Source: Octopus vulgaris
Taxonomy: Eukaryota
Direction of reading: 5' to 3'
NCBI GenBank assembly: GCA_951406725.2
Contig: OX597818.1
Coordinates: 52,514,001-52,578,000, forward strand
DNA: 64,000 nt
The notes under the pieces are model-generated. The model was not told the DNA's origin. It saw only the letters and a list, made by a program, of their open reading frames with translations, and ran no database searches. Below are positions 54,062 through 56,697 of the stretch, piece after piece. A program made the position numbers and the translations under genes. Each line of letters opens with the position of its first letter. Within the stretch, counting starts at the first letter, position 1.

Positions 54062-54804
54062 TATATATAGTCAAAATGAGGGTGAAAAAATTGGATATTA
54101 ATTTAATAACATCAATTTAAACACCAGTGGTCTAGCGCATAAAAGACTGAGATTCGGTAAATATTATTAATACACAAATATGAGAGAGAATCCACTATGT
54201 GGACGCTCTTACGCTAGATATAGATCCTCAAGGGTCTGAACCACTAAGAATTGTTCTATATATATATATATATATGTGTGTGTATATATATATATATATA
54301 TATATATATATATATATATATATATATATATATATATATATAGATAGATAGATAGATAGATAGATAGATAGATAGATTCAGATGAATAAGGTACTTAATT
54401 TGAGGCACCAGAATTTAGTACAGTATTATCCATACAATTTCAAAGTAAGGTGATTAAAATCAAAATAAAGATTGTCAAAAGTAACATGTGGAAGGTTGGT
54501 TGCGTTAATTATTGGTTGTTGCAAATTGCTACATTACATATATATATACAGTCTTTGGTAACAGGGACATGTTATGGACATAAAAAAGTACAACAGTATG
54601 TTGAGAATATAAAGAGGTTTAACAAGCTCATTGAAAAAATGGGCAGAAAAGATTAAAACAAATATATTATACATCTCAGGATATCCTTGTTGCTTATTTT
54701 GATTTATATATATATATATATATATATATATATATATATATTTGCATATTTATATATAGATTATTTACGCATATTTATTAATTAATTATTTTGATTATTG
54801 TGTT

Positions 54805-54908
54805 TAATCTGATGAGTGGCTATATTTATATTCAAGTGATTTTACTACTACTACTAATATTTTTACTATAATCATTTCTTAAATATAGCCACGAAACACG
54901 TGTCGTTA
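54805..54908 (+). ncRNA. Type I hammerhead ribozyme, intact core
   Basis: TAAT-CTGATGA-GTGGCTATATTTA...TAAATATAGCCAC-GAAAC-ACGT-GTC-GTTA: 13-bp perfect stem II, palindromic stem III, GUC cleavage triplet at 54902-54904. Confidence 0.85.
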
Positions 54909-55207
54909 TTCTACCGAATATATACTTTTTATTTATTATTTTGCATATTACTTAATCATCGTTATATTTTTATCTTGTACTTAATCTTTCTATTATATGT
55001 AATTTTCTAGATGGTGCAATTTAGTCTTTCATTTTGAATTGATAAAAGGTGGTTTTTTCTAATTTATACATATATATAATATATATATATATATATATAT
55101 ATATATATATATATATATATATATATATATATATATATATATATATATATATATGTATTTATATATATATATATATATATATATATATATATATATATAT
55201 ATATATA

Positions 55208-55673
55208 TATACGAAAGAAGGTTTGAAAATGCAATTTAAAAGATGTTTTATTTACTTTACCGGTTTCACTCTTTGGAAAAAGATTGTCAAAAGTAACATG
55301 TGGAAGTTTGGTTGCGTTAATTATTGGTTGTTGCAAATTGCTACATTACATATATATATACAGTCTTTGGTAACAGGGACATGTTATGGACATAAAAAAG
55401 TACAACAGTATGTTGAGAATATAAAGAGGTTTAACAAGCTCATTGAAAAAATGGGCAGAAAAGATTAAAACAAATATATTATACATCTCAGGGTAACATG
55501 TCCCTGTTACCAAAGACTGTATATATATATATGTAATGTAGCAATTTGCAACAACCAATAATTAACGCAACCAAACTTCCACATGTTACTTTTGACAATC
55601 TTTTTCCAAAGAGTGAAACCGGTAAAGTAAATAAACATCTTTTAAATTGCATTTTCAAACCTTCTTTCGTATA
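55208..55673. repeat. Inverted repeat (about 180-bp arms), PLE-terminus-like, with degenerate hammerhead at 55588-55628; partial direct copy at 54466-54680
   Basis: Arms about 55208-55386 and 55493-55673; ACTT-TTGACAA-TCTTT(TTCC)AAAGA-GT-GAAAC-CG-GTA-AAGT. Confidence 0.8.
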
Positions 55674-55901
55674 TAATTCCACTCGTGCGATACCCCACAA
55701 CTCAACTTTGTTATATATATATATATATATATATATATATATATATATATATATATATTTATTTATATACGACAAGAAATAATTTTTGTCTCTTTTTTTG
55801 AGTGTGTTAGGAAATTTCGACTGGTCCTGTGATGGATTATTATCTTTAAATTATCCATGCGGCATTGAATGAACTTTTTGGCTTTGTTTGAGTTTCCTGT
55901 T

Positions 55902-55984
55902 CATCCTGATGAGGGATTCATTGCCGAGATGCACTTTAACTGTAATCGAACCGCGGCAATGAACTCTCGAAATGGCCGTAGATG
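55902..55984 (+). ncRNA. Type I hammerhead ribozyme, intact core
   Basis: CATC-CTGATGA-GGGATTCATTGCCG...CGGCAATGAACTCTC-GAAA-TGGCC-GTA-GATG; cleavage triplet GUA at 55978-55980. Confidence 0.82.
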
Positions 55985-56697
55985 TGTTTGACTTGATTTT
56001 GTGGAACTCATTTTGCCCCTGGACTCTAACCTACCATCGCTTTATGAATTGAACTTTTTGGACGTACACTTTTGTGTGAGGGGAGTAAAAAATTTTTTTT
56101 AGTCAATTGATATTCTATTTTATTTTAGTTTATTTAGAATTTTAGTAGCATGACACGCTTTAGAATTTTTAGTCGCTTGTATTTACCTTTTTGATAGGCC
56201 GTTCTATTTGTTTATATTTTTATTCGCATACATATCTTTACCTTCTGTGTTTTTTATGTATGAATATTTTTATATGTTGAAGAACCATGTTTATATTCAT
56301 ATCTGATCAAATGTTTGGAGGTATAAAGTCATTGACTCGAATTTGATATTTGTTCTATGATCAATGTTTTATATATATAATATAATATAATATGATATAA
56401 TATAATATATAAATATATGCATATATATGCATACATATATGTACATACCTACATATATATGTATATATACATGCATATATGGGTACAGGACATAAAAAAA
56501 AACGTTGAACACGATGAGAAGCATAAGGTATGAACAAGACACGACTTCGTTGATACACACACACACGCACACACACACACACACACACACACACACACGC
56601 ACACACACATATGTACATGCTTTCGCTGGAAATGGTTTTGTTATATGCGCCGTATTTTTAAATCTTGTAAATAATAATAATAATGTTATTTTCATGA

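Follow-up and report, generated by a model that had tools for sequence, protein, structure and literature searches.

The locus

The window analysed here, a 64-kb stretch of Octopus vulgaris DNA, holds two short cassettes that carry one long-armed hammerhead motif each, set among TA runs and remnants of Penelope-like elements (PLEs). Cassette 1 (54742-55065, + strand) is T-rich (49% T), occurs once in the window and lies between (TA)n tracts at 54705-54740 and 55065-55211. Cassette 2 (55800-56369, + strand) belongs to a dispersed repeat family and lies between a (TA)n tract at 55712-55757 and a TA-rich tract at 56370-56480, which forms its right border; just ahead of it sits a short, separate repeat piece (55765-55798) with a depth peak of its own and a loose end behind 55798. 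Flanking TA tracts of this kind are a trait of PLE-type (TA)n insertion, and both cassettes are probably truncated PLE ends.

Neither cassette appears to code for protein: ATG frames of 25 aa are absent from cassette 1, and none exceeds 40 aa in cassette 2. The two are unrelated to each other in local alignment (p 0.395), tandem copies of either are absent from the 64-kb window, and BLAST against 34 Neptune-like PLE loci returned low-complexity matches only. The last 48 nt of cassette 2 (56322-56369, + strand) form a terminal block, conserved separately from its upstream flank and tail-like in size and place, in which the hairpin is not above chance (z -0.12). A sequence-only reading that preceded this analysis had proposed ORF-free, TA-bounded cassettes with unrelated flanks, and the frame search, the TA tracts and the alignment bear this out. 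Its layout has to be amended for the separate repeat at 55765-55798 and for two more hammerhead motifs between the cassettes.

Two hammerhead folds with a long stem II

The motifs in cassettes 1 and 2, HHR1 (54805-54908, + strand) and HHR2 (55902-55984, + strand), contain every core base and show the type I hammerhead order of CUGANGA, GAAA and NUH with stems I-III; their cleavage is a prediction. In HHR1, a stem I of 4 bp (54805-54808 with 54905-54908) is followed by CUGAUGA (54809-54815) and by a stem II of 77 nt (54816-54892), which consists of 13 unbroken bp, an internal loop and another 8 bp and is capped by a 28-nt loop with CTA repeats. GAAA (54893-54896) and a perfect 8-nt palindrome (54896-54903) complete the fold, and the cut is predicted 3' of C54904, at a GUC site. 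HHR2 is built alike, with a 4-bp stem I (55902-55905 with 55981-55984), CUGAUGA at 55906-55912, a stem II of 56 nt (55913-55968; 14 bp with one bulge), GAAA at 55969-55972 and an 8-nt palindrome at 55972-55979 with G.U at its ends; here the predicted cut lies 3' of A55980 (GUA site). Type CSG, with the cleavage block in loop II, fits both motifs worse, and no site gives both stems 3 bp.

A strict hammerhead descriptor, run over both strands of the whole window, matches exactly these two motifs and nothing in 100 of 100 block-wise dinucleotide shuffles; with a loose descriptor the window again yields two matches, and 100 shuffles yield one. The stem II hairpins are far more stable than their shuffled counterparts (HHR1, z -5.97, 0/200 equally stable; HHR2, z -3.62, 1/200), and so is the whole HHR1 motif (z -3.28, 0/200 as stable). 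HHR2 taken with its flanks reaches z +0.09 (96/200 shuffles as stable), so its overall stability is not above chance. The two core-intact hammerheads of the sequence-only reading and their paired stem II of 13-14 bp are thereby confirmed. The Rfam hammerhead models, which it had named as a check, turned up neither: no match at the gathering score, and no hammerhead among the 42 matches down to E 10 in the window. Since Rfam also misses the short Neptune motifs of the same stretch, this result reflects a limit of the models.

Penelope-like ends between and beside the cassettes

Between the cassettes, two PLE ends lie in inverted orientation, 55212-55493 on the - strand and 55494-55711 on the + strand, and their arms are 100% complementary over 114 nt. 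Each arm is a Neptune-type PLE end and carries a short hammerhead motif (55296-55252 in the left arm, 55586-55630 in the right) that combines a U3-A8 core with 6 bp in stem I and a palindrome of 6 nt; the right motif has U.U at the base of stem II. A 36-nt tail (55676-55711) is found on the right arm only, and the left arm has none. Inverted, 5'-truncated copies with a tail of 30-40 nt are clear in this element. To the left of cassette 1, 217 nt of the Neptune-type end at 55279-55495 recur at 54467-54683 (- strand); this partial copy is 99% identical and cut inside the hammerhead stem II. Next to it, the stretch 54374-54468 (- strand) represents another TA-inserted repeat family by its 3' end. 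It is 80% like 20660-20760, a segment that sits behind a decayed long-spacer hammerhead candidate. This third long-spacer candidate (20864-20785, - strand; spacer 57 nt, z -0.36) fits type I and type CSG about equally, and its downstream end recurs four times in the window, twice within the HHR1/HHR2 locus.

Hammerhead motifs recur elsewhere in the window. A relaxed scan finds eight of them, where 60 shuffles average 0.33, or six against 0.1 if GAAA has to be intact; each of the eight is followed by a TATATA run within 400 nt. At 16910-19545 lies a Neptune-type PLE relic made of two inverted arms, of which one is tailed. Of a Neptune-type protein, its arms encode the C-terminal half, with the RT thumb, a cysteine linker and GIY-YIG; its protein relatives are RT plus GIY-YIG proteins, and it holds two hammerhead motifs, at 19408 and 17014, whose core is changed to GCAA, the former about 75 nt ahead of the relic end. 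A short motif is common to its tail and to the tails at 16809 and 55680. Further examples are a tiny TA-bounded PLE-type end at 19636-19912, which is an inverted pair with a U3-A8 hammerhead motif, and a cassette of less than 100 nt between microsatellites (42737-42822), which has a U3-A8 motif and starts nearly at stem I. A second, decayed Neptune-like RT relic lies at 48417-49549 (- strand). A search that detects Neptune-like proteins only found no PLE ORF beside either cassette, and the nearest relic is the one ending at 49549. Because ORF-free, TA-bounded hammerhead ends recur in the window, cassettes of this kind are the ordinary residue of PLE insertion here.

Other parts of the window yielded several observations in their own right. 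A U6 snRNA match (832-935, - strand; 101 bits) abuts a copy (406-839) of a repeat of about 430 nt, of which the window contains about ten copies; a minisatellite with a unit of about 75-78 bp lies at 2112-2923; and a 940-bp tandem duplication at 7906-9804 is 98.9% identical, with LINE-like peptide fragments recognized by eye.

Hammerheads of Neptune-like relatives

An alignment of eight homologues was used to fetch 34 related PLE loci. In a relaxed scan, 17 of the 34 carry a hammerhead, always on the ORF strand and with a self-complementary stem III; 15 lie downstream of the ORF and two upstream. These 17 are not independent cases, since three locus pairs share one motif, and several of the 17 loci without a hammerhead have short flanks. 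Stem II with its loop measures 11-17 nt in the 17 motifs, although the scan admitted lengths of as much as 130 nt, and 16 of them have a 6-nt stem III; the 77 and 56 nt of HHR1 and HHR2 stand well apart. A search with a model from 15 of these motifs, which is mostly a sequence model since only four of the six pairs of its hand-written structure were kept, gives its top ranks to the two motifs that lie between the cassettes (26.9 bits, E 0.013), followed by 42737 (E 0.15); HHR1 and HHR2 are not among its six matches in the window.

The idea that the tails code for a conserved PLE N-terminus was dropped, because ORF1 in the fetched Neptune loci starts further downstream and differs. In four of these loci (L003, L004, L007 and L026) a long frame precedes the RT-EN frame, and the hammerhead lies about 100-200 nt before the start of the long frame; in many cases a hairpin immediately precedes the ATG. 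Some Neptune-like elements come from records of bacterial assemblies (L001 and L002; P0022, P0042, P0048 and P0052), where they are probably animal contamination. Scans for the hammerhead pattern gave no match in viral contigs, and none and one in prokaryote contigs; the sole prokaryote match (L035) was rejected, as it has no stem II.

Cassette 2 as a dispersed repeat

Cassette 2 was compared with 45 contigs from four sequencing runs, which we guess to be RNA. It is a member of a dispersed, multi-copy, non-coding repeat family, as the sequence-only reading had expected of a mobile element. Most copies are 80-95% alike: none of the contigs reaches at least 99% identity, seven fall at 95-99%, 23 at 90-95% and 15 below 90%. 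With no contig at least 99% alike, this particular copy of cassette 2 is not shown in any run. The contigs leave 56269-56310 uncovered.

Changes of the HHR2 core were not found among 40 of the 44 difference rows, where few contigs cover the 5' half of the core. Two substitutions improve pairing in all covering depth of three runs (eight contigs each): 55967 T>C turns a G.U into a G-C pair, and 55978 G>A makes the palindrome perfect. In four contigs 55982 A>G changes a stem I U-A to U.G. As judged by reading, changes in the stem II 5' strand within contig loose ends mostly keep pairing; one stem II pair is C.A in the loose ends of two contigs, and the only listed contig that spans HHR2 lacks 14 letters in stem II. 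Both 55967 T>C and 55978 G>A replace G.U by Watson-Crick pairs, and two-sided pair changes are absent among the listed differences.

One contig joins an inverted copy of cassette 2 head to head, whereas none of the four joints listed from the 45 contigs goes back in the manner of a tandem. Coding sequence linked to cassette 2 was not found in the listed pieces and loose ends; these pieces (92-426 nt) are too short to reach an ORF, so that their silence is weak evidence.

Dimer folding and a model of insertion and cleavage

Energy calculations, which contain neither tertiary terms nor concentration, place the monomer hammerhead folds 7.3 (HHR1) and 6.9 kcal/mol (HHR2) above the respective best fold. 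The double-hammerhead fold of two identical copies is predicted to lie 15.1 (HHR1) and 19.3 kcal/mol (HHR2) below two monomer folds, and 0.5 and 5.5 kcal/mol below two best folds, while the best cofold is still 5.8 and 6.6 kcal/mol lower. Eight short control motifs behave similarly (12-20 kcal/mol below two monomer folds). The palindromic stem III of the sequence-only reading is real as an 8-nt palindrome in both motifs and, together with the 4-bp stem I, would favour a PLE-like dimer; the modelled energies fit the dimer model of PMC4209133.

Taken together with published PLE work, these features suggest how the cassettes may have arisen. The GIY-YIG nuclease of a PLE would nick AT-rich DNA, and reverse transcription of RNA left uncut would start downstream of the ribozyme, by about 170 nt in cassette 1 and 390 nt in cassette 2; an early stop would leave a short, ORF-free piece. 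By analogy with the Anolis PLE, early-stopped copies of two PLE families may have landed in one TA tract, both retaining a ribozyme that has not been cut and that lacks a matching partner in its vicinity. For that element it is reported that the nuclease favours AT-rich DNA, that reverse transcription starts inside the RNA at two tail-defining sites, that the main template is uncut RNA and that the ribozyme requires protein (PMC11167929). With a stem III of 2 bp, each ribozyme would be inactive alone, and two identical copies are predicted to pair via the 8-nt palindrome and to cut each other, possibly with protein help. The HHR1 and HHR2 palindromes differ, so these two cannot partner each other; lone copies are probably inert, with cutting predicted only for homodimers. 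The simplest role for the long stem II would be that of an arm folded in advance, which keeps CUGAUGA and GAAA close to each other.

What the cassettes are

We favour, with moderate confidence, the view that cassettes 1 and 2 are the 3' ends (single pseudo-LTRs) of two different PLEs, each left by a 5'-truncated insertion into a TA tract. The excess of hammerhead motifs in the window (eight against 0.33), the Neptune relic with its own hammerhead, the 17 of 34 related loci and the relatives of HHR2 that restore the palindrome all point this way. Against it count the search for Neptune-like proteins, which found no PLE ORF beside either cassette, the absence of contigs joining cassette 2 to coding sequence, a stem II and an 8-nt stem III unlike those of the fetched Neptune motifs, the C.A pair and the 14 missing letters in stem II of some relatives, and a best cofold below the double-hammerhead fold; head-to-head inversion, too, also arises in LINEs. 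The inversion and tail traits of PLEs have possible counterparts in cassette 2, the one inverted contig and the 48-nt terminal block; cassette 1 shows neither. Inverted head-to-head copies have been described for PLEs (PMC8557442), and most animal PLE hammerheads are single dispersed motifs with U-rich 5' flanks, probably from truncated PLEs (PMC4209133).

The sequence-only reading had instead seen non-autonomous, PLE-mobilised elements akin to retrozymes. The link to PLEs stands, and the lack of an ORF does not show non-autonomy, given that the ORF-free, TA-bounded look-alikes in the window are Neptune-type ends and a missing ORF is thus expected of a 5'-truncated copy. That the cassettes are short elements derived from PLE pseudo-LTRs, solo retrozyme-like monomers spreading by means of PLE proteins, we consider unlikely, if a serious contender. 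Cassette 2 is indeed multi-copy and non-coding, with no coding sequence in the listed pieces or loose ends of the 45 contigs, and lengths of 330 and 570 nt fall within the 51-972 bp reported for such elements, for which dispersed monomers have been described (bioRxiv 10.64898/2026.07.22.740005). The coding silence, however, comes from pieces too short to reach an ORF, Neptune ends of proven type in the window are equally ORF-free, the window shows no tandem and the four listed joints no go-back, and the ribozymes are not of retrozyme form. Retrozyme membership is accordingly not upheld, and ordinary PLE ends, the outcome that the sequence-only reading had itself named as counting against it, are the likelier case. 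The gap between truncated ends and non-autonomous elements narrows, though, with the argument that animal retrozymes derive from PLE ends, most PLE insertions keeping one terminal repeat (bioRxiv 10.64898/2026.07.22.740005).

Ends of some non-PLE retroelement, or regulatory ribozymes kept by the host to cut a host transcript, would account for the failure of the Neptune-like protein search to find a parent ORF near the cassettes, and for two cores that are intact although cassette 2 is some 5-20% diverged from its relatives. We regard this as improbable: the palindromic stem III, the short stem I and the TA targeting are PLE traits, the present HHR2 copy has two weakening G.U changes relative to its family, and no run shows this copy, as none of the 45 contigs is 99% alike. 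Hairpins arising by chance in low-complexity DNA, finally, would agree with the lack of an Rfam hammerhead match and with the unremarkable stability of HHR2 with its flanks, yet they are already largely refuted by the two descriptor matches against none in 100 shuffles, the z values of both stem II hairpins and the improved pairing in cassette 2 relatives, and we give them next to no credence.

Within the preferred origin of the cassettes from PLE ends, or from a non-autonomous offshoot, a more far-reaching and rather doubtful proposal is that one lineage consistently builds its hammerhead on an arm of 55-80 nt, kept by selection as a folding scaffold or as a protein-binding site that licenses dimer cleavage. 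If true, and given two clear families and a third, decayed candidate within 64 kb, long-arm ribozymes might rank among the more frequent catalytic RNAs that lie hidden in the genome, and unrecognized hammerhead layouts would be supplied by PLE ends (compare the candidate at 29759-29830, below).

A candidate permuted hammerhead

At 29759-29830 (+ strand), about 115 nt before a TA tract, lies a candidate hammerhead in non-circularly permuted order: the 5' strand of stem II comes first, followed by the cleavage block, the GAAA block and the 5' strand of stem I with CUGAUGA, and there is one extra helix. Its stem II 5' strand is thus upstream of and detached from CUGAUGA, which has been assumed to stay joined to stem II (PMC10085705). 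A decayed sister is found at 12826-12988 (+ strand). A scan for the permuted order gives two matches against 0.275 in 40 shuffles, and none at the strictest cut; taken alone, the candidate is weak. By eye, the same four-helix order, with other stem sequences, fits Naiad ends published for two octopuses, a squid, three corals, a box jellyfish and one further family; two ends from the nematode section fit type CSG, again by eye. Naiads are said to lack canonical hammerheads (PMC8557442). The permuted candidate may matter more than HHR1 and HHR2 and is possibly more novel.

Comparison with known systems

The closest known counterparts are the hammerheads of PLE pseudo-LTRs (Cervera and de la Pena 2014, PMC4209133; Craig et al. 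2021, PMC8557442; Frangieh et al. 2024, PMC11167929). HHR1 and HHR2 share with them the type I order, the full core, the 4-bp stem I, the self-complementary stem III, the U-rich 5' flank and the place near a 3' end in (TA)n, as well as occurrence mostly as single dispersed copies. In its length of 8-10 nt, the stem III of HHR1 and HHR2 resembles Hydra-clade rows (PMC8557442, file S2) and Aedes rows, a resemblance and nothing more. The difference lies in helix II, which comprises about 4-8 bp with a short loop in the published motifs, against 77 and 56 nt here. Among the 56 rows aligned in figure S3 (PMC4209133), stem II does not exceed about 23 nt, as judged by reading, and the core-only searches of PMC8557442 allowed a spacer of at most 17 nt. 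A precedent for a long loop is PLE-X1_sMoe of spike moss, with 9 bp and a 35-nt loop (PMC8557442, file S2).

The motifs at 55592 (+), 55290 (-), 42745, 19408 and 17014 match Neptune-clade PLE ends in core, palindrome and place; HHR1 and HHR2 share core, palindrome and setting with such ends and differ in stem II and in the 8-nt stem III. The 'HHR_half_core' ends of Naiad PLEs (PMC8557442) are like the cassettes in having core halves far apart, (TA)n targets and cephalopod members; unlike in HHR1 and HHR2, GAAA precedes CUGAUGA where both core halves are present. An assignment of the cassettes to Naiad found no support: they bear no likeness by eye to the cephalopod ends Obim, Ovul, Omin, Esco and Adux, and four short motifs taken from the two ribozymes are without match in the PMC8557442 supplement.

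With animal non-LTR retrozymes (Cervera and de la Pena 2020, PMC7229834; Li, Clavereau and Pollet 2026, bioRxiv 10.64898/2026.07.22.740005) the cassettes share a non-coding sequence of low GC content and a few hundred bases, one type I hammerhead, a relation to PLEs and dispersed monomers. Retrozymes form tandem repeats, whereas the cassettes are single in the window with no tandem layout seen. Retrozyme hammerheads have a 6-bp helix I, a 4-bp helix II and a loop-loop contact (PMC4209133), a form that HHR1 and HHR2 do not take, although mussel retrozymes, too, are described as having no loop-loop contact.

No report of long-stem hammerheads in cephalopod PLEs was found in a search that excluded Lunse 2017 and Arkhipova 2017, the works likeliest to show variants, and the novelty of the long-arm form is not secure. 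Long-arm motifs alone do not establish a new kind of element. They do imply that counts based on Rfam or on short-spacer descriptors miss some PLE-end ribozymes. PLE-end hammerheads of the literature cleave slowly, in dimeric form or solely in the presence of protein, and a natural long-arm form offers a clean test of stem II function. The association of hammerheads with PLE ends is already known; what is unusual in HHR1 and HHR2 is the long stem II arm.
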